Shown piece by piece: positions 9,456 through 47,937 of a DNA stretch of 64,000 nt. The DNA comes from Neophaeotheca triangularis (lineage: Eukaryota), in assembly GCA_054600435.1 (NCBI GenBank), contig BAAIJX010000016.1, positions 248,001-312,000 on the forward strand, in the 5' to 3' direction. The position numbers and the translations under genes were made by a program. Position 1 is the stretch's first letter; each line of letters begins with the position of its first letter. The notes beneath the pieces are model-generated. The model ran no database searches and was not told the DNA's origin. It saw only the letters and a list, made by a program, of their open reading frames with translations.

Positions 9456-10349
9456 CTAAACCTCCACCCCACAACCCTCCTCATCCATCTCACGCCAAAG
9501 AACCCAAACACCCTCAACAGTCAACTCCCCCTCCCCCCTCGCCGTCTCCAAAACCTCCCACAACCCCAACATTCCCCTCAACCTCTCCATTTTCGCTCCC
9601 TCCTCAGTCGCCAGCAAATCCTCGATAGCAACGATAGCCGTGACATTCGCGTTGCCGGGATTGTTGACGAAAGCGTTGAAGTAGTTATCGTCGACGGGCG
9701 TGGCGGAGGTTTCGGTGGAGAGAGCGAGCAGGCCGCGGAGGAGTTGTGCGTTGGTTTCGGAGAGCGGGGTTTCTGGGGAGAGGTCGGTTGCTGTTGGGAG
9801 GTTGGTTTGAGGCCATTCTGGCGCCACTGCGGTGATGCGTTTGGGCAGGGTTTGGAGGAGGTAGAGTAGGCAGAGTTTCTTGGTTTCGGATTTGGTTTTG
9901 ATGGGGTCCGGGGTCGGGGTTGAGGTCTCGGGAGTTGGCTTCGGGGCTGGGACCGTGCGGTTGAGGATTGTGGTGTAGGTCTCTTGGGTTTGGAGGTTGG
10001 TGAGGTGGAGTTCCCAATCGGCTATGGCGGTGTCGAGATTGGCGCGGAGCTGGGGGAGGATGGAGGTGAAGTTGGAGAGTTTGGAGCGCATTGCTCGGGG
10101 AACTTGGAGGGATGGTAGGGATTCGGAGGCAGTGTTGGAGGTGACGTTGTCGTTGGAGCCATCCATGGTTGTTGACGTAGTGTTTGGAGATGCTGGGGAG
10201 TCGGTCTGGCTGTTGCTTGTTGACTGATCACTGGGTATGGCAGGGAGGGGTTTTGGTGGCAGGGGCTTGTTCACGTCTGGTTTCATGCTTGACGGCGCCT
10301 CTGGAGTCTCCGGCGAAGGGCTTGCCGACCTTGTGTTTGGTGGCGCCAT
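9456..10349 (-). CDS. Hypothetical protein (Pro/Ser/Thr-rich N-terminus, helical C-terminus)
   Basis: ~297-codon ORF from ATG 10349. The start is uncertain because an upstream exon is possible. No family recognised. Confidence 0.5.
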   Translation of the reverse strand: MAPPNTRSASPSPETPEAPSSMKPDVNKPLPPKPLPAIPSDQSTSNSQTDSPASPNTTSTTMDGSNDNVTSNTASESLPSLQVPRAMRSKLSNFTSILPQLRANLDTAIADWELHLTNLQTQETYTTILNRTVPAPKPTPETSTPTPDPIKTKSETKKLCLLYLLQTLPKRITAVAPEWPQTNLPTATDLSPETPLSETNAQLLRGLLALSTETSATPVDDNYFNAFVNNPGNANVTAIVAIEDLLATEEGAKMERLRGMLGLWEVLETARGEGELTVEGVWVLWREMDEEGCGVEV

Positions 10350-11086
10350 TGGAGTCTCGGGCGAAGGGTTGGCCGACCTGATAAATGGCACTGGCGCGGT
10401 CGCTGCGGGTAAAAGTAGATGGTTAATTGCTGACCGAAAGCACTTGATGTCTCAGCAGGGCACGAGTAGAATATTACTAAGAGCTGGCAATGCAGGGCGC
10501 TCGTTTTTCATGGGGTAGGCGTTCTTAAGAGGCTTCATCTTGCCGGCCAGGAGTGGTAGATGAGTTGCGCTTGTCGAGGTGTTGTCGCGGGTGTTGGATC
10601 ACAAGAAAAGGCTGCCTTCACTTTGGATCGGAGGTTGTTGTGTCAGGCAAAACCGTTTAGTGAAGTCTTTACAACCCGTTCTCACTTGCATACAAGCACG
10701 GACCAGAAAGCAGGAGACGACGAGAGGATAATGTCTGAGGCCGCAGAGCATCGAGATGGAGTGACATTGCAGAATTCACGGCTGCTCTGCATCGAGTCAC
10801 TAGATCAATACCATCTGTAATTCGTTTGAAAGCTTGGAACAGATTATGGATCCTTGCATGATCTTCTCGATGTGCAACGCTTCTTCCCCTCGTTCTCACA
10901 CCTTTTTTTGGCATGACTTCGGTCTCCTTTCCCATCTTGAGGGCGCTTTCACCGTCTTGACTGGAGGCCGCAAAAGCTTCGCATCCCAAACTCCATTCGC
11001 TCTCTTTGCACCCCTAATCACTCCCACAGCGAACTTCACACGCTGCCCATCTCCATGTTAAATCGATGTCCCTCAAATACCCTTCC

Positions 11087-12887
11087 TCAAACGTTCCCAT
11101 ACAGTAGATCATCCAGCTTCTGGCGTACCTCCGCCGGAAGAGGCCATCTGTGTTCCTCACAGAGTTGCAAAAAAGCATAGATAGCCGGCCCCCTGACAAA
11201 CCTCGGAGACCCAACCAAATACTCCAAAAACCGTTTCGGATCGTCCCTGAACTTCAACATCTTCTCTCGAGCAGCATTCACTAGTTCTTCGCTGCCCGCG
11301 GTAATGTGTGAAGGGCTTGAACGAGTCGACCCATACAGTTCGCACATGTGCTCTTTGCCCATCCGAATGTAGTGTTCGTACGTGTCCGCACCATCTTGCA
11401 TCGCGGCTTTGTGGGCAGCGGAACGCTTAAGCTTCGGCTTCGAGACTGGACGCTTGCCCATGAGGGAAGGCAGTGTTGGGTTGAACTTGCGGAAGAGGCG
11501 CCTGGCATCGCGGTAGCGGTCCCAGTCACCGTTCAGTCTCACCATGTTCATGTCTTGGAAGGCTATCTGGGGGTTGGAAGTTCCTATCAGTATCTCGTCG
11601 TATCTAATTCTTTAGGCCCCCTTCCTCCTGCTTACGTATTGCATCATTAGAGGTTCAGCCGTGTCGATGGCGGCATCGAGGAATTTACCGAGCGCAGCTT
11701 TGGCCGTCGCGAGGTTTTCGGGTTGTCGCAGAGCGTTTGCCACTACATCGGCATCCGGCATGCGCTTGTCGAAGCGACGTTGGAAGTCTTCGGTCATCAT
11801 AAAAACTGGGACTGTCGTCAGTGAAGCACAATTCGAAAATCGATGGGTGGCTTACAGTATCGCTCAGAAGAGGACACTTCCGGCCAGTGAGGTGGGGGTA
11901 CCCACTGCTCCAGGCGAGTGAGTGGCTTCGGGGTGCCAGGGGGAAGCTTTGCGTGCTTCTTTGCTTCATCGCGTGCAAGCTTGCGTGCCCTACCCTTGAG
12001 CGCACCGTTTGGCTTCACCTGGCAGGCGGCTTTGACGACTGCTTCGCAAGCCTCTTGGTAGCTTTTTGGCTGGGCCGGGACCTCATCCTTGTTGGTTGTT
12101 AATAGTAAATTCTTGGATTTCTGGAGGCAGCTAATACTCACCTCCTCATACCACAACCCTCTCTCTGGAACGAGCGCCTCTAGTGGGTGCATTGCAATGG
12201 AGTAAGCCTCTTCCCAGGGTCTTCCAGAGAAGCCAAGTTCATCATGTCTAGCAGCGACGAGGTCGAAGATGATCCTAAAGTCGGGTATCTCATGCGTGAA
12301 CCTGGCGCATTTGACGTAGTCTGTATCCATAATCTTTTGATGCCTGGCGGCTTTGTCGGGAATAGCCGCAGTGATTTCGGCAACTGTGGGCTGAGTTGGC
12401 CTCATCGATTCCAACGCGGCGATGTCAGGGTCTTGCCACTCAGCTGCCCAGGAAGGTTCGGAAGGTTCAAATCGATCAAAGGTTGTGGGTTGCCACTCTT
12501 TCTCTTCGGGGGTTTCCGCTTCCACCGCTGCTGGCTCGCCACACGAGTGCTTCATGCCACGATCCTGGAAGTACAGATCCCAACGCTGAAAGGTATGCTT
12601 GCTGCACTTCATCAAGTCGTCCATGTCGCGATTTAGATGGCGCACTTCCTCCAAGGCATCCAGGCTTCGCTTGCTCACGTCCTTGGCTGGAGTAAGGTTT
12701 AGCAAGGTACGTTCTTCATATTATACGGGTGAAGAATCAATGGCAGTTGCGAACCCTTCTCCAGCACTTTTTCGGTGTTCTCTAGGTGCGACTTAGCCTC
12801 AGCGAGGAAATCCTTTGCTTCCGGCACCTCAGGCTGCTCGTTCGCCTCAGGCTGTTGGCCTTTTTTCTGCTTGTTCTTTGGAGCCAT
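11087..12887 (-). CDS. Hypothetical 4-exon protein (orphan-like)
   Basis: ATG 12887 (MAPKNKQKKGQQ). Four consecutive minus-strand ORF segments are linked by introns at about 12688-12754, 11807-11855 and 11568-11635, with GTTCGC/GTAAGC donors and CAG acceptors. Stop at 11087. No family recognised. Confidence 0.6.
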
Positions 12888-13240
12888 GTTGGTAGTGATG
12901 TTCAAGTTGACGTGGTATTTCGATGTGGTAGTTTGCAGGGTGAGTGAGGTTGGAGTGTCGTGTTGCTGCGGCCTAAAACAACACCGACGCACGGGCCACT
13001 GTCAATGTTTTGGGAAGATGCGTGAGTATGCCACAGTAGGCGGTCGATGCCAAATCCTCTAGCAACGTGCTAGTTGAATGGGGATAAGAGAGTATAGAAG
13101 CAGCGCACAGTATTGTTTTCCTTGTGGCACGGCAAAAAAAGCGCCGTGTACCCCTGCGTGAAGATAGAGTGAATCTCAGGAGAACAACACCTCGAACAAT
13201 AACAAAGCAAGCCCCTGCGGTCAAAAAAGAAAAAAAGGAT

Positions 13241-13410
13241 AAAAAAAAACTCTCATTTCCTCGAAAGTACTGAGAGGAAACCCTACTTCACGCTGACACC
13301 CCTCGGGGCTGGGTTTTGAAGTGTGAACCTTTTAATCGTGGTAACCGGATCGAACCTGGGCAGCTAACCTTGAGGGAGCCTTTGACCGCTCAGCCTCGAA
13401 CCCTTACTCA
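13241..13410 (-). ncRNA. Candidate Pol III transcript: tRNA-type A/B box leader, structured body and oligo-T terminator
   Basis: Minus strand: A box AGGCTGAGCGG (13396-13386), B box GGTTCGATCC (13356-13347), several perfect complementary segments, then T9, T7 and T6 runs (13249-13223). Confidence 0.5.
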
Positions 13411-14734
13411 CTACTCATATTTTTTCAACTCGGTTAAAACGCTTTGGGGGATCGGCTTACAAATCTTGCTGCAAATGTCGAATATATTGTTGCAATTGAT
13501 TTTGGTCAGAATGTTGGCGCTGCAGGGGGTCAAGTGTAGGAGTGGTGTTTCGATGGTGGCGGAGGCTTGCGATGATTTCTGCATCCCGTCGTGAGATCCT
13601 CTTGTCTAAGGTGCACGTGGTGGTCATCATCGTATCGTCACGCTTTGGCTCTCGTTGTTGCTCGGGACCGACTCGCTCTCTAGCCACGAGGCCATGGGGA
13701 CCGGCTGATGGGCAGCATACAGACATGCAGGCTTCTCGAAGACATTGCGCTTTCTCGCCTTCGTAAAGTCCGGGTATCTTCAAGATTGCCTACCCCGACT
13801 TCACCCTTCCAGATTCGATGTGCTCCGTCAACACTGAGCGATGTCTGTCTGGGTTTGCCGGCACCGCAGTTGACAACTTGTCACTGCCCGTATCAGTTCG
13901 ATCTTACTTTTCCCGTTCTTTCTCAATGACATCCGATAATTGCGGGATCCCGGAGGAAGCGATCCCTACTTAACGACCACGCAATACTGCACCCTCTCAA
14001 TGCTTCAAAATTGATACCAGCACAGCTCCAGAAAGAATCATTGCCACAGCGAGCCCATTCCAAATCGCCACAAGGTCCAACAAGACCCAGTACCCAAGAA
14101 ACCCCAGAAACGCGACCCAAACGGCCAAAAAGCAACACCCGCCCACAACCCTCAGCCATCAAATAGCCAACACAAAGCCAAAGCTTCCATCGCCCGGACG
14201 CCCAAGCTAACCCAAACATACAACTTAACCCGCATTATCTCCATCGAGCAAACACATCTCGTACGAAAGCTCTCAAGGTCGTACCAAAAACGCCATCTGG
14301 CGTGCTCGCACGCGTGTGGCTTGCACTTGGTGGCAAAGCTTGCACGACCCTGCGTTGACCGCCTACGCTTCTGCGAGCTTTAGAGGGGAGTATGGGAGAA
14401 GATTTTAGCGTGTGGATGGGCTTAGGGTGTTCCTGTTGCGAAACGGACTGATCTAGACTTTCGATGTGGACGGTGAAAGAGCTGCGAGAAGTGTTTTTGG
14501 GATGTTGGGTGCTTTGATCGGGCGTTTTGCTCGGGTTTGGTGGGTATCGAGGTTGACCGCTCTGGCTCGAAGCGCGGGCTGAGGTCGAGCTGGCGGGTAT
14601 AAGAGAGAGAACCCGCACGTCTCTCAAGGTTGTCCAGCCCCTAGAAGCCACCCACTGCAATTCATCCTTCTAATAGACACTCCAGCTCTTCGTTCTCCCC
14701 CAGTATCGCAGAGTCCACCAGTCCTCAAGCAAAG

Positions 14735-16389: not shown

Positions 16390-18178
16390 CTACTGCGAAT
16401 AAACATCCAACCCTAACCCAACAGGAAAATACTCAGCCCCCGGCGTCCCCTTACAAACCCAAACCCCCGCACTCCCTCCCCTACAAGGAAAGACTCCGCA
16501 TCCATCACCCTGGATCTGCACCTCTCCATTCCCACCAACGCAATCCCACCAGACCTGCCCCGGCATCCCGCACTGCATGCGCTTAGCAGTAAACTCCTCG
16601 CCCAAATCCTCTCTCGGGCCAGTGGAAATGACAACAGCGCATCCGGGACGATCGTGAGTGCCGTGGCGAACCCAGCCAATGTGGGATTCGGCGTCTAGGT
16701 AGTCAGTTTGCGGGCCGTAGGCGAAGAGTTTGCGAGCGAGCATTAGGGAGGGGAGGACGGAGAATTGGGAGCCGGAGCGAGAGGTCTGGAGGCAGGCTGG
16801 CGGGGCGCCTTCGTCGCCGCAAGTGCCGTAGAGGTCGCCCCAGAAGACGCAGGGGTAGCCTTCTTGGCGCAGCAGGATGAAGGCATAGAAGAGGGTTTTG
16901 AGGTTTGCGTCGACGGGGGTGTCGGAGGCTTGGCCCGGTTGTGTGTCGTGATTGGTTACGAGGGTGACGGCTTGGGTTGGGCGGAGGGTGATGAGGGAGT
17001 TGCGGGTGATGGTGCGGAGGTCGGCATTAGGGGAGCCGTTGACGACGTCGGTGGAGATGCGGGAGAAGTTGTAGACGAGAGGTGTGTCATAGGCGAAGGG
17101 CGTGGGGCCGACTACGTCGAGCCATTTGGTGATGCGCTCAACTTCGCCGGACCAGACTTCGCCGACGATGAAGGCGGGGCGGCCTCGGCAGCGGTGTGAG
17201 GCTTCTTGGACGGCGGCGATCCAGTCGCGTGCGAATGTCCAGGAAAAGTGGGAGGCGGCGTCGAGGCGGAGACCGTCCACGCCGACGTGTTCGATCATCC
17301 AGCGACCCCATTGGATGACGTCGTGGCGGGCTTCTGGGTTGGCGTAGTCGATGTTGGAGAACATGAGGTAGTCGAAGTTGCCGTGCATGTCGTCGACGTC
17401 CGGGGCCCAGCCTTTACCGGGACGGTTGGTGACTGGCGGCGGGGAGGTGAATTTGTTCTTCATTTTAGACATGAAACGATCGAAGCGGTCACCGCCTTGT
17501 CCGGGTTTAGGATAGCTGGCCGGGTCGTCGATGAGTTTGAAGATGGCTTTGTCGCCTGTTTTCTGATCGTAGTCGGAGCCGTTGAAGTGACAAGCACGCC
17601 ATTGCAGAGGGCTGTATTGGCCCCCTCTGCCAGAGAAGTCGTATCTGATCCAAGGCTCGATTCGCTTTGGTGAGCAAGTCTCAACGTTGCGGTCTAATGG
17701 TTTAGCTTGCAAATCCTTACAATCATCCCATTGTGTATTGACAATTGCTCCACTCACCTCCCTGATCAACCTCCACAGCCCAACACTCCTCGGTGGTATC
17801 ACCCGCAGTCTTGTGATTCAACACAGCATCCCAAACAACCTCCACCCCAGTCCTCTTCGCACAGCCAATCAAATCGCCCAGCTCTTCCCGGCTCCCCCAC
17901 TTCGTCGCTCGCTGGAATTTCTGATCAAACTCGCCCAAGTCCCAAAGATCATAGCAGTCGTAACCGTTACCCGCCCCGGAAGGTTCGTTGGCTTTGCAAC
18001 CCGGCGGGAGCCAGATGGCAGTTGTCCCCAATCCTGCGAGCGAGGGGAGGATGCGCTGTAGACGGGACCAGTGGGAATTGTGGTTGTGAGTCTCGCCGCC
18101 CTCGGGACGTTCGGATTGCGTGTGCCATTCGAAGGATTGGAAGAGGGTGCGGTTCTGGGGAGTCGGTGGGTAGGCCAT
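16390..18178 (-). CDS. Intracellular alpha-amylase, GH13 subfamily 5
   Basis: TLFQSFEW, GNGYDCYDLWDLGEFDQK, DAVLNHK, catalytic regions DGLRLDAASH, VGEVW and VTNHDTQPGQ. Intron 17694-17757. No signal peptide. Confidence 0.9.
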
Positions 18179-30569: not shown

Positions 30570-33514
30570 TAGTCGTTCGACCTTGGACCTTGGGCTTTCG
30601 ACCTTCGGGGGGTTCTATGGACTATGATTTTATTTTGGAAAGCCGATTTCGACCGGTACGCTCCCGAGCTAACGGGTTTAGTGGCGGCAGGGCTGAGTCG
30701 TTTGTCTATGATCGGGTACTTGTACAGAGGGGGGTGAACTTGTCCGTCTGAGAAGTGCTATCCAAAAGTCATCAAAAGACGTTCGGGACTCGCGAGTGCC
30801 CTAGGTAGACTAGGGAGTTTGCTTGACTAATAGTTAGTAGTAGGTGTATGTATGTGTATATGTAGGTCGTACATAGCTATCATCGAGTCGCGTGAACTTT
30901 TGTCTCCATATCTATATACTACTGTGCCTACCTTGCTAAATTAGCTGCTGCTTCTCCTCGTCGTGTCGTTGACTACCTTACTACTACTAGAGTATGGAGA
31001 CACGGAGAGGCTTTGGCACTAATAATCTGATGACGAAGGTGGTGGTTTTGGTGTGGAGAGGTGCTATTTTGACCTGCTAGAAAGTCTAGACAGAACTAAT
31101 GTATTGTGTTGGTGGGGACGGGCGCGTTTTCTAGCTGCGTGAGAAGGTTTTCTTCTCTTTTGCAGGTCGACGTGTCGATGAGGGAATTCGTGAGCGTCTC
31201 TTTTTTTTTTTTTTTTTTGGCCTTCTTGTGAAAGAATTCTGGCTCTTGATGTTTGTTTAGAGTTATGCCTGTCATCGTTGTGATCTGACAGTGTGTGTTG
31301 CTACGGACTATGGTCCCTTTTTTTGGCCGGGTTGATATGCTCCTATGCTCTAACGAGGCGATTGGTGGTGAGGCGATTCGCTTGGGTACCTGGCTGGGAG
31401 GTACTGTTGCTTTCCGAGGTATCGCTATTAACAGCACCGAGGGCAATTAAAAGGTCGTATTATTTCGAGGTATTTCACGTGCTCGCAAGGCACATTTCCG
31501 CTTGCTTGCTTGCTTGCTTGATTAATTCATCGTACCGTGTATTCTTATCATCGCGTGCTCTACCCTTTCTCGGAGACAAGCGACGGCGCCATCGAGGCCG
31601 AGGGCAATAACAAGACCGAATATGTGGGCTTCTGAGCTGGGCAATCATCATGCCGCGACCGAGTCAAGGTAGGTTGCCACTTGCCACTGCATCCTTTCGA
31701 CTTCCCTCGACTGCTTGCCTTGCACTTCGTCGACGAGAATAAACAATAATCCCTCACTTGCGACCCCACCGCGGCGTACCTCCCTAGTGCCCATCCTTCC
31801 CCAAGATGTTCGAGAAATAGCATCAACGCCGCTTGGAACGGTTGTTGCTGGGCCGGTCTGGTCGGTGGCAGTCACATTATTATTACCTCAGCTGTCTACC
31901 TACCTATTCCCGCAATCGATAATTCGCAATTTGTGCTTTTCCCTTTCCCCCCCCTCTCAATTTTACGATAGGGCGCTTCTACACGTTCCTTTTTTTAGCT
32001 CCATCGCCCAGTCAACACAGTAGTCAACCGTCAACCGTCAACCGTCCCCCATCCAGCAAAGCAAAGTTTCCTTGGGACAGCTCGGCACTAGACGCTAACG
32101 TTACGTACGGCGGCGGGCGGCGAGCGGCGGCGGCGGCGGTGCGGCACAGGAACGAGGAAGACGAGAGGGGCTGATGTCGGAGGATTTGCGTGCATCGGAG
32201 GATAAAATAATATTCTGGCTTTCTTTGAAGGCGGGTGGCCTCGGCGAGAGCTTGGGAGGGTACCTACCTATACGAGTACAGTACCTACGCGAATCACAAT
32301 CCCTCCGTACCTCTGTACTCCCGTAGACCGGTTACCGGCTAGCCGCCCCGAGGAGTAGGGGAGAAAGAGCAAAAGTAAAAGAATCGCGCGTGGCAGCCGT
32401 GGCTTGTTGGCACTGCAGGTCCCGGCCTCTTTCTTCCCGCTGGCCAAGAAGTCTCCATCATTATTATCGTTGCTAGGTACAAGAGATAATTACGTGCAGC
32501 ACCAGCCAGCGCATGCGACAAAAAGACCCCTTGCATGCTTTTCGAGGCCAAGCCAAAACAAAAAAAAAAGAAACCTGCCACCGATGAGAACTGCCCGACT
32601 ACTCTGCGCCTCGTTGATTTTTCTTGCTTCCTTCTTTTCCTGCTTGCCTTTCCGGCCATACGGTCGCGCTTTTAGAGTTTCGTGATCGCCTGGGGAAATG
32701 AGCAATGGTGGTGAATCAGAAGCAAGACACCCTCCCACACGGGGAAGTGTGCGAGAGAGCTAGTTGGTTGATTTAATTTAGTACGATGGTTAGTGTGGCT
32801 GTGGTGATGATGAGAGTAGTCGGTACCCAGTCTTCTTCTTCTTCATTCGCGCTGTTTCTAGGACGGTCGATTTTCCAACTCTCGTGTAATGGCCTGCTTA
32901 GGGCGGGAAAGCTTCTCTCCACGCGCCAACGCTCGACTACGGACTACTAGGTAAGGTACCTAGGTACTGTTATTATTATAGTCGAGGGGAGCGGGACTAG
33001 TAGTAGTTGCTACTCGCGAGTCGGTGAAGTTGTTGTCGGTTTGTTGCTAGAGCACCCGCGAGAACCTGCATGCATCAGTGCATACGAGCCGTCGATAGAG
33101 CGTGGGAACCCCTGCAAACCGCTTACCGGCTCGAACTCTGCCTCATGAACGAGTTCCTCGTCGCGCCATGACGATGATTAGTGTAGGGTGTTTGAGAGGT
33201 GAACACGTGAAGAATAAAGCAAATACTGGACTTGTTCGGCCACGGGATCGGGGTAGGCGAATTGAGTCATGGCACACGGCAGACAAACACAACAGACTAC
33301 TACTACTACCACCTACAATCGTCTGACTCTTGAGAAAAGCTGGAGTGTTGTGCCCCCGCCGATACGAGAACAGCGAGGGAGGGGACGTTGCTGGGGTGGG
33401 CGGAGAGTGAGCAACTTAGAGGAGCAGTCGGCCAATCAAAATTATCTACGAGCGGCCTTCTATTCCTGGCGACGGAGCCAAGCTCGCTAAGAGCTTGCCG
33501 ACCATGCCGTCGAA

Positions 33515-46791: not shown

Positions 46792-47937
46792 GGTTTGAGG
46801 TTTTTTTTTTTTTTTTTCGCGACGCTGGCTTTTGAGCAGAGATGAGACTGGGCGTTTGGTGGTTCTAGAACTTGAGAGGGTTGTTGTGACGGTCAACACT
46901 ACTACCGCTGTCAGTTCAATGGCTTTGATAGGTCGCACCCCAACGCTTCTACGAGCTAGCTACACACTACAGCACCAGCAGCAGCAATATCAGACGATCG
47001 CTAGCAGGAGACAACGAACCAAACCCCCGGACCGCTGAAACTAGCACCGCCCTTCTCCCACTGTTAGAAGCCTGTCTTTGAGTGAGATGATGAGGGGTGG
47101 GGGTGGAGGGCCTGAGATCTGGGATCTGGGAGTTGGCGGAGGGGTGGAAGTGGTAGGGGTCGCTGCTTTGGGTGTTTTTAGGTTGCTGTTCTTAGAGCAG
47201 AGATGGCGCTGCCGAGAGGGAGTAATACTTCTTTTGGCCAGCCTCGAGCGACTTTGGGCTTACGAAGGAAGGGCGGCGAGGTGGCTTCATTAACTCAAGC
47301 CAAGAGGGCCCCGTATAAGATCGAGATGGTGATGTCTGAGAGTCTGATGGCTTGTTCCTGGGGCAGCGGTCTAGCTACCTAGTTCCTTACTTTCGTCCTT
47401 CTCGGGGAAGAGTTCTTAGGCGTTTCATAGTGCTGTGAGAGGGAGAGCGTCGTACAACTATCTGGGCTAGAGGGATTTGAGCCAACGGAGACGCCCCGGC
47501 GACGTTTCTTTGGGTAGTGTTTCGCCGCGCATGCTAATAGGTGAGCTAAGAAATAGATGTTGCGAGCATCTCGCCTTCCTCTCTGGCGGAGTTGCTCCAT
47601 TCTACTGTTTGCACTATGTTGGGACTTGCACGAGGTTCACTGCTAAGCTCGAAGAACTCTCATGCATAGAGTAGAGCGTTTCGTGAAAAACAAAGGAGAG
47701 GTGGCAGCGACATGCTTCTGCGTTTTCTTGCTGTTCGTTGAGCCATGGTACTCCGGTACTTCTAGGCAAGGCTGCCTCAGCACCGCCAAAACTGCAGGGC
47801 TGCGGCACGAGCACCGACAAGGCAAGGCGGCGGTGTTTTTTGGCGGTGTTTAGCTTTGGGCCTTGGGGGTTGGATATAAGGCTATACAGCTTCACCTCAC
47901 ATAGACATCCTTTCCCTCTTACTACGAGCACTTCTAT

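Follow-up and report, generated by a model that had tools for sequence, protein, structure and literature searches.

Is the intergenic element on the minus strand at positions 13442 to 13223 of a stretch of Neophaeotheca triangularis DNA the gene of a novel small RNA, or is it what a transfer RNA (tRNA) gene leaves behind when it decays? The stretch comprises 64,000 nucleotides (nt) (contig BAAIJX010000016.1 of assembly GCA_054600435.1, positions 248,001 to 312,000, forward strand) and is referred to below as the window. In a first-pass annotation, made from the sequence alone, the element had been proposed to be a candidate RNA polymerase III (Pol III) transcript in which a tRNA-type promoter leader is fused to a body of interlocked helices. 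The follow-up analysis described here indicates that the element, which lies between two genes, is best filed as an orphan tRNA-derived Pol III-type unit; this is a known kind of element, and a new RNA class is not demonstrated. In the reading preferred here, and held with moderate confidence, it is what remains of a decayed tRNA gene, a single-copy type 2 Pol III unit with a body of read-through sequence.

An A box, a B box and an oligo-T run, the marks of a type 2 (tRNA-type) Pol III unit, are all present on the minus strand. The A box, AGGCTGAGCGG (13396-13386), agrees with the consensus TRGCNNAGYGG, which was also used in the first-pass annotation, at 10 of 11 positions with the sole mismatch at the first position, and it is continued by the D-arm-like sequence TCAAAGGC (13385-13378). 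At a spacing of 29 nt from the A box follows the B box, GGTTCGATCC (13356-13347), which matches GGTTCGANYC exactly (10/10). The first run of at least four T residues 3' of the B box is T9 (13249-13241), 97 nt away, and T7 (13236-13230) and T6 (13228-13223) complete a terminator-like region at 13223-13249. Upstream of the predicted start lies an AT-rich stretch (13442-13416, minus strand) that includes AAAAAATATG at 13425-13416; the GC fraction is 0.467 over 13150-13449, compared with 0.53-0.55 farther out. By analogy with type 2 Pol III promoters, this stretch is a possible landing site for transcription factor IIIB (TFIIIB). The A box, its tRNA-like continuation, the B box and the three T runs had all been listed in the first-pass annotation, and each was found in place. 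Boxes, permissive spacing, AT-rich upstream stretch and oligo-T terminator together support the layout of a type 2 unit, as judged from sequence, and a small RNA may well be transcribed from it.

A current tRNA gene could be ruled out by ARAGORN and by the Rfam tRNA model. ARAGORN reported no tRNA gene in the window at default settings and none at thresholds of 95, 85 and 75%; at 65% it returned a forced tRNA-Leu(caa) over 13411-13337, together with a nonsense call on the opposite strand. The Rfam tRNA model gave no match at its gathering score and none at E<=10 on 101 nt, and no T stem was seen at the B box when the sequence was inspected by hand. The earlier exclusion of a tRNA in the 5' part was thereby borne out in both searches. 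The leader of about 75-80 nt (13337-13415, minus strand) is predicted to fold as a long irregular hairpin and not as a cloverleaf (-22.9 kcal/mol, z -0.73, equalled in 21% of shuffles). The accompanying statement that no acceptor stem is left held only in part: there is no true tRNA acceptor, but in the predicted fold a closing stem of 7 bp with one bulge joins the two sides of the leader (13411-13404 / 13344-13338). This stem is about 12 nt too distant from the A box for a tRNA acceptor stem, and its 3' side comes right after the T-loop-like B box.

The likeness of the leader to a tRNA exceeds the box consensus. A D arm is able to form (G10-C25, C11-G24 and U12-G23, read by hand), the heptamer CUCAAGG stands at the expected position of an anticodon loop, and the closing stem and the forced tRNA-Leu(caa) call point the same way. 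The leader is therefore likely to be of tRNA ancestry, as far as its sequence can tell. The ancestor was possibly tRNA-Leu(CAA)-like, and tRNA-Leu is put forward as a lead only.

Under the preferred reading, the tRNA cloverleaf and the gene's own terminator appear to have been lost, with the boxes that TFIIIC would read still intact and correctly spaced. The motifs, their spacing, the single copy and the lack of a tRNA or Rfam identity are observed directly; factor binding, start site and transcript are deduced from the general mechanism of such units, and the lack of function is likewise an inference. TFIIIC would recognize both boxes, A at 13396-13386 and B at 13356-13347, and would place TFIIIB on the upstream AT-rich stretch (~13442-13416). 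Starting near 13412, Pol III would transcribe the relic and then non-tRNA sequence of about 97 nt, and would terminate in T9 (13249-13241); T7 and T6 would be held in reserve. The expected transcript would measure about 165-175 nt and end in oligo-U, and the hairpins of its body would be ordinary, chance-level read-through structures that were not selected as a structured RNA. If the unit has a biological effect, occupancy by TFIIIC and Pol III, about 340-510 bp upstream of the likely start codon of the neighbouring gene (near 12885, same strand), would be a more likely source of it than the RNA.

The strongest rival to this reading is a dead relic without Pol III transcription, in which the boxes of a young pseudogene have persisted by chance, or the match of the A and B pair is itself fortuitous. 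A scan for an A box (at most one mismatch) located 24-60 nt ahead of an exact B box found one such pair in the real window, and in 300 dinucleotide shuffles of the 64-kb window a pair arose in four, a rarity that favours the preferred reading. At this rate per 64 kb, several chance pairs are nevertheless expected across a genome of about 33 Mb, and the element was chosen out of many windows, which adds to the case for a relic. In the same scan, the other B-box matches of the window (27317 and 61423) had no A box ahead of them. The T runs, too, can be explained without Pol III, if they belong to the core promoter, rich in pyrimidines, of the neighbouring gene on the minus strand. A downstream open reading frame (ORF), 12884-12699, is on the same strand as the unit and has its first ATG, the likely start codon, near 12885, about 340-365 nt from the T tracts. 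In promoters of filamentous fungi, pyrimidine tracts are often found shortly before start sites. Against a dead relic stand the tRNA-like features, which occur in the right order and go beyond the box consensus, including the D-arm-like continuation; the AT-rich upstream stretch speaks against it as well, and an A and B pair in which the first run of four or more T within 200 nt was at least T6 was obtained in none of the 300 shuffles. On balance this explanation is possible but doubtful.

Whether the body is more than read-through depends on its helices and folds. All five helices named in the first-pass annotation consist of standard pairs, with one G-U in GCCCC/GGGGU, and had been described as two modules of a-b...a'-b' topology. 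The pairings exist, but the pattern represents two mutually exclusive folds and not simultaneous helices. The state with ACUUCA/UGAAGU and UUUCCUC/GAGGAAA is computed at -21.8 kcal/mol, and that with AAACCC/GGGUUU and CUCUCA/UGAGAG at -18.3 kcal/mol. The first body hairpin (13285-13322, minus strand) is formed by ACUUCA/UGAAGU around a 4-bp hairpin of the CCCC/GGGG type, with mean pair probabilities of 0.92 for the outer and 0.69 for the inner helix. The hairpin GCCCC-GA-GGGGU had to be given up as written, since a 2-nt loop cannot be closed; the feasible form has 4 bp and a 4-nt loop. The helix competing with the outer one, AAACCC/GGGUUU (13316-13311 / 13283-13278), reached a pair probability of 0.004. 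In the second hairpin (13250-13280, minus strand) two registers compete: UUUCCUC/GAGGAAA (13280-13274 / 13262-13256) at 0.59 and CUCUCA/UGAGAG (13276-13271 / 13255-13250) at 0.34. The latter abuts the terminator exactly as first noted, its last position being 13250 and T9 starting at 13249. A real alternative is thus predicted only in the last hairpin, because the probabilities are 0.92 against 0.004 in the first module and 0.59 against 0.34 in the second. An H-type pseudoknot in the first module over a 6-bp helix is sterically implausible because the linker between UGAAGU and GGGUUU is 1 nt, a point that was reasoned and not computed.

The fold stability of the element is at chance level relative to shuffled sequences: z was -0.51 for the fold energy of 186 nt, +0.03 for the body, -0.44 for a short version of the body and -0.40 for the whole unit. 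With these energies, the negligible AAACCC/GGGUUU helix and the 1-nt linker, the idea of a special switch- or pseudoknot-like body found little support. As had been predicted, no Rfam family was matched on the element when the whole window was scanned at gathering score. Lax Rfam scans produced noise only (ncr982, NPPA-AS1_3, sR1, CRISPR-DR19, SNORA49, ceN114 and anti-hemB; E 0.29-9.7), far below the gathering scores.

Several specific identities for the body were tried and rejected. For a C/D or H/ACA small nucleolar RNA (snoRNA), U6, signal recognition particle (SRP) RNA or RNase P/MRP RNA there was no Rfam match, and no boxes could be recognized by eye. A Dicer-type precursor was rejected, the helices being just 6-7 bp long, and a telomerase template read from TAGGGTT was judged to be a chance heptamer.

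As a separate observation, the minus strand contains a 13-nt imperfect direct repeat (77%) whose copies are 120 nt apart, GTGAAGTAGGGTT (13279-13291) within the body and GTGAGTAAGGGTT (13399-13411) immediately ahead of the A box; it may be due to chance.

For the search of copies and relatives, the contigs of four public runs (X1-X4) were compared with the locus. X1, the probable source run, was read whole (56312 records, 32.5 Mb), with matches taken at a likeness of at least 80%. The element is covered by a single X1 contig, a count subject to the contig filter, which may drop some contigs. Two X1 records fall on 12300-14300, the second of which reaches 13455-13491 alone; the comparison was thus sensitive enough to report a 37-nt match with five mismatches. 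Within the 64-kb window no second copy of the element was found. An ordinary multi-copy short interspersed element (SINE) is therefore unlikely, and the copy number speaks against the option of a tRNA-derived SINE, left standing in the first-pass annotation. The 37 nt at 13455-13491, just upstream of the element, have a second copy of about 86% likeness on one other X1 contig and on two X2 contigs. The flanks of these copies are unlike on both sides, and by estimate such a match is at chance level in a 33-Mb genome.

The remaining runs added one relative. X2 shares its organism label and study with X1, and its flanks are about 2% diverged from the window (33 differing letters in about 1620 aligned bases). 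X3, a marine metagenome, had no contig on the element and two poor pieces of 37-38 nt elsewhere, and from X4 no contig was placed at the locus. X3 also contains a 157-nt contig at 13507-13663 with two differences and a depth of about 6, so that the marine sample may contain a close relative of the organism. Metagenomes were in addition scanned with a pattern consisting of the A-box stretch, a gap of 20-30 nt and the B box, and the flanks were read 140 nt after and 30 nt before each match. In none of the 35 loci obtained did the sequence after the match look like the element on inspection of these flanks by eye; they represented bacterial or other tRNAs and chance matches in coding sequence. 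No diverged homologue was found in this pattern scan, and the near-identical X2 sequence is the sole relative found.

Four points weigh against a body of mere read-through behind a decayed tRNA gene. A freely decaying relic should lose its boxes along with its stems, and here near-perfect boxes stand beside a ruined cloverleaf, which hints at selection on promoter function; such selection could act on the promoter or on TFIIIC occupancy instead of on the RNA. A second point comes from X2, in which a contig over 13186-13360 shows no substitution and one change from T9 to T8, against an expectation of about 3-3.6 substitutions (Poisson P about 0.03-0.05, by hand arithmetic). These two points are the main argument for something beyond decay. 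The X2 result may be a weak hint of constraint on terminator, body and B box, taken from one 175-nt contig between two gaps in X2 cover, 13037-13185 and 13361-13454, the latter including the A-box half (13361-13438). Thirdly, complementary hexamers are enriched in the body: five perfect pairs were counted in 81 nt, where 2000 shuffles averaged 0.84 and five or more were reached by 1.2% of them, in a test devised after the helices were known. Finally, transcript, start site and factor binding are deduced from the motifs. Read-through is nevertheless the favoured account of the body, because neither fold energy nor family searches single out the body, and the unit is present in a single copy.

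Two side observations also concern X2. Two adjacent insertions (12 + 4 = 16 bases) are found at 12909-12910, upstream of the likely start codon of the neighbouring gene, and one contig parts from the window left of 13215. In this comparison the stretch from unit to gene seems to be structurally variable while 13186-13360 is unchanged.

Alternatively, as proposed in the first-pass annotation, the element could be a genuine leader-type Pol III gene, the functional product of which would be an undescribed two-hairpin RNA, about 90 nt long and ending in a U tail. The A/B leader would then be only a promoter that is removed, or it would stay attached as in tRNA-derived regulatory RNAs, and the 3' hairpin might toggle between its two registers. 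Much of what troubles the preferred reading would be accommodated by such a gene, namely boxes kept after loss of the cloverleaf, the absence of substitutions over 13186-13360 next to flanks diverged by about 2%, and the excess of hexamer pairs; the division of the second hairpin between registers at 0.59 and 0.34 would also fit. Its layout is shared with the snR52, RPR1 and Zod1 leaders as outlined in PMC2566860, and Neurospora Pol III hairpin RNAs, one of them co-transcribed with tRNAs, are followed directly by T clusters according to PMC3547838. However, fold energies at chance level, the lack of an Rfam family and of C/D or H/ACA boxes recognizable by eye, and helices too short for a Dicer-type precursor weigh against it. 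The only relative found is near-identical, with nothing alike among the 35 metagenome loci, and the conservation comes from one contig whose cover stops short of the leader (13361-13438). We consider this explanation unlikely.

A novel non-coding RNA, ribozyme or switch, as first suggested, is a possibility, and in its most elaborate form the element would be a lineage-specific Pol III small RNA with a tRNA-Leu-derived leader and a 3' domain that switches between UUUCCUC/GAGGAAA and CUCUCA/UGAGAG, the latter abutting the U tail. Through this switch, the formation of the 3' end or the attachment of La/Lsm-type proteins would be regulated, and the RNA would be a counterpart in fungi to regulatory RNAs of tRNA origin such as BC1. 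This form is distinctly improbable.

A tRNA-derived SINE or SINE-like retrocopy, suggested by the A/B-box head with its tRNA-unrelated body and by similar low-copy elements published for A. fumigatus, is highly improbable. One copy of the element was found among the X1 contigs and one in the window, and its 3' end consists of T runs and lacks a tail that is A-rich, of simple repeats or like a long interspersed element (LINE). By eye it resembles none of the eight AfuSINE2 sequences in Table 1 of PMC5063351. The proposed check for target-site duplications gave nothing convincing, the sole flanking direct repeat being an 8-mer (13401-13394 / 13197-13190) that overlaps the tRNA-like head and is of a length expected by chance within 550 nt.

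Orphan tRNA-derived units, the group to which the preferred reading assigns the element, can be compared with several known Pol III genes. With SNR52, RPR1 and ZOD1 the element shares A and B boxes in a non-tRNA leader (here about 75-80 nt), followed by non-tRNA sequence up to an oligo-T run. ZOD1 is a weakly transcribed orphan unit. The bodies of SNR52 and RPR1 are a C/D snoRNA and RNase P RNA, whereas the body here matches no Rfam family. In PMC2566860, the snR52, RPR1 and Zod1 leaders of S. cerevisiae are described as having regular A and B elements that cannot be arranged as tRNA-like structures, and the RPR1 promoter leader is given as 84 nt.

By layout, AfuSINE2 of A. fumigatus Af293 is the closest published description (PMC5063351). 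These elements are reported there to be 140-493 bp long, with an estimated 1-5 copies and five of eight transcribed, and to have degenerate A/B boxes, a non-cloverleaf 5' region, a tRNA-unrelated extension before the oligo-T tract and target-site duplications of 4-14 bp (PMC5063351). The tRNA-related, non-cloverleaf 5' region with boxes, the unrelated extension, the oligo-T and the low copy number are common to both. The boxes are near-perfect here and degenerate in AfuSINE2; there is no convincing duplication here, and the sequences are unlike by eye.

A downstream RNA driven by an upstream tRNA is also found in dicistronic genes. In Yarrowia lipolytica, RUF70, an RNA of about 70 nt with no known function, is encoded by 13 genes located behind tRNA-Trp, and dicistronic tRNA-5S genes occur as well (PMC2566860). 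For Neurospora crassa, PMC3547838 describes milR-4 as co-transcribed with tRNA-Ala and released by RNase Z, with a T cluster directly after the hairpin. In tRNA-Trp-RUF70, tRNA-5S and tRNA-milR-4, as in the arrangement considered here, a promoter-less downstream RNA is driven by upstream tRNA-type boxes and ends at a T cluster. Their leaders, however, are functional tRNAs that can be released by RNase P/Z, whereas the leader here fails the tRNA tests, and RUF70 has 13 genes as against one copy. BC1 RNA, a tRNA-derived Pol III regulatory RNA of mammals, consists of a tRNA-derived 5' hairpin domain, an A-rich linker and a unique 3' domain with a T-run terminator; it is expressed and its partners are known. 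This layout, with a 5' domain folded as a hairpin instead of a cloverleaf, is the point of likeness, but BC1 comes from an unrelated lineage. Pol III boxes are not mentioned in the A. fumigatus small-RNA paper PMC2377427. A published description of the element itself was not found in the literature search, which is not proof of its absence in print.

To our knowledge, the Pol III transcriptome of filamentous ascomycetes is little mapped beyond tRNAs and the 5S, U6, SRP and RNase P RNAs. Leader-type genes, SINEs and TFIIIC-bound boundary elements arise from orphan units in which the A and B boxes are intact. If the element is transcribed, its single copy would make it a clean case in which to ask whether the selected trait is the RNA or mere Pol III/TFIIIC occupancy beside a Pol II gene, and it could possibly provide a native, compact Pol III promoter-leader to express guide RNAs in the source fungus. 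If it is silent, it would be an ordinary tRNA relic.

The window as a whole has a GC content of about 54% and interrupted ORFs, which together with an alpha-amylase-family ORF suggest the genome type of a filamentous fungus. Eight ORFs were scanned against Pfam, and for the seven around the element (61-311 amino acids; 9456-14660) no family was found at E<=0.01; the genes of this region are poorly conserved or lineage-specific. Farther out, the minus-strand ORFs 17723-18178 and 16390-17802 adjoin each other, and the longer one matches the Pfam family Alpha-amylase (PF00128, E 1.6e-10). The two look like a single glycoside-hydrolase gene with an intron between its halves. Neighbours of the amylase-like ORF in a protein atlas were mostly bacterial cytoplasmic alpha-amylase families, from which no useful taxon could be derived. 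Homopolymer runs also occur elsewhere in the window, as T18 at 31201-31218 and T17 at 46801-46817.

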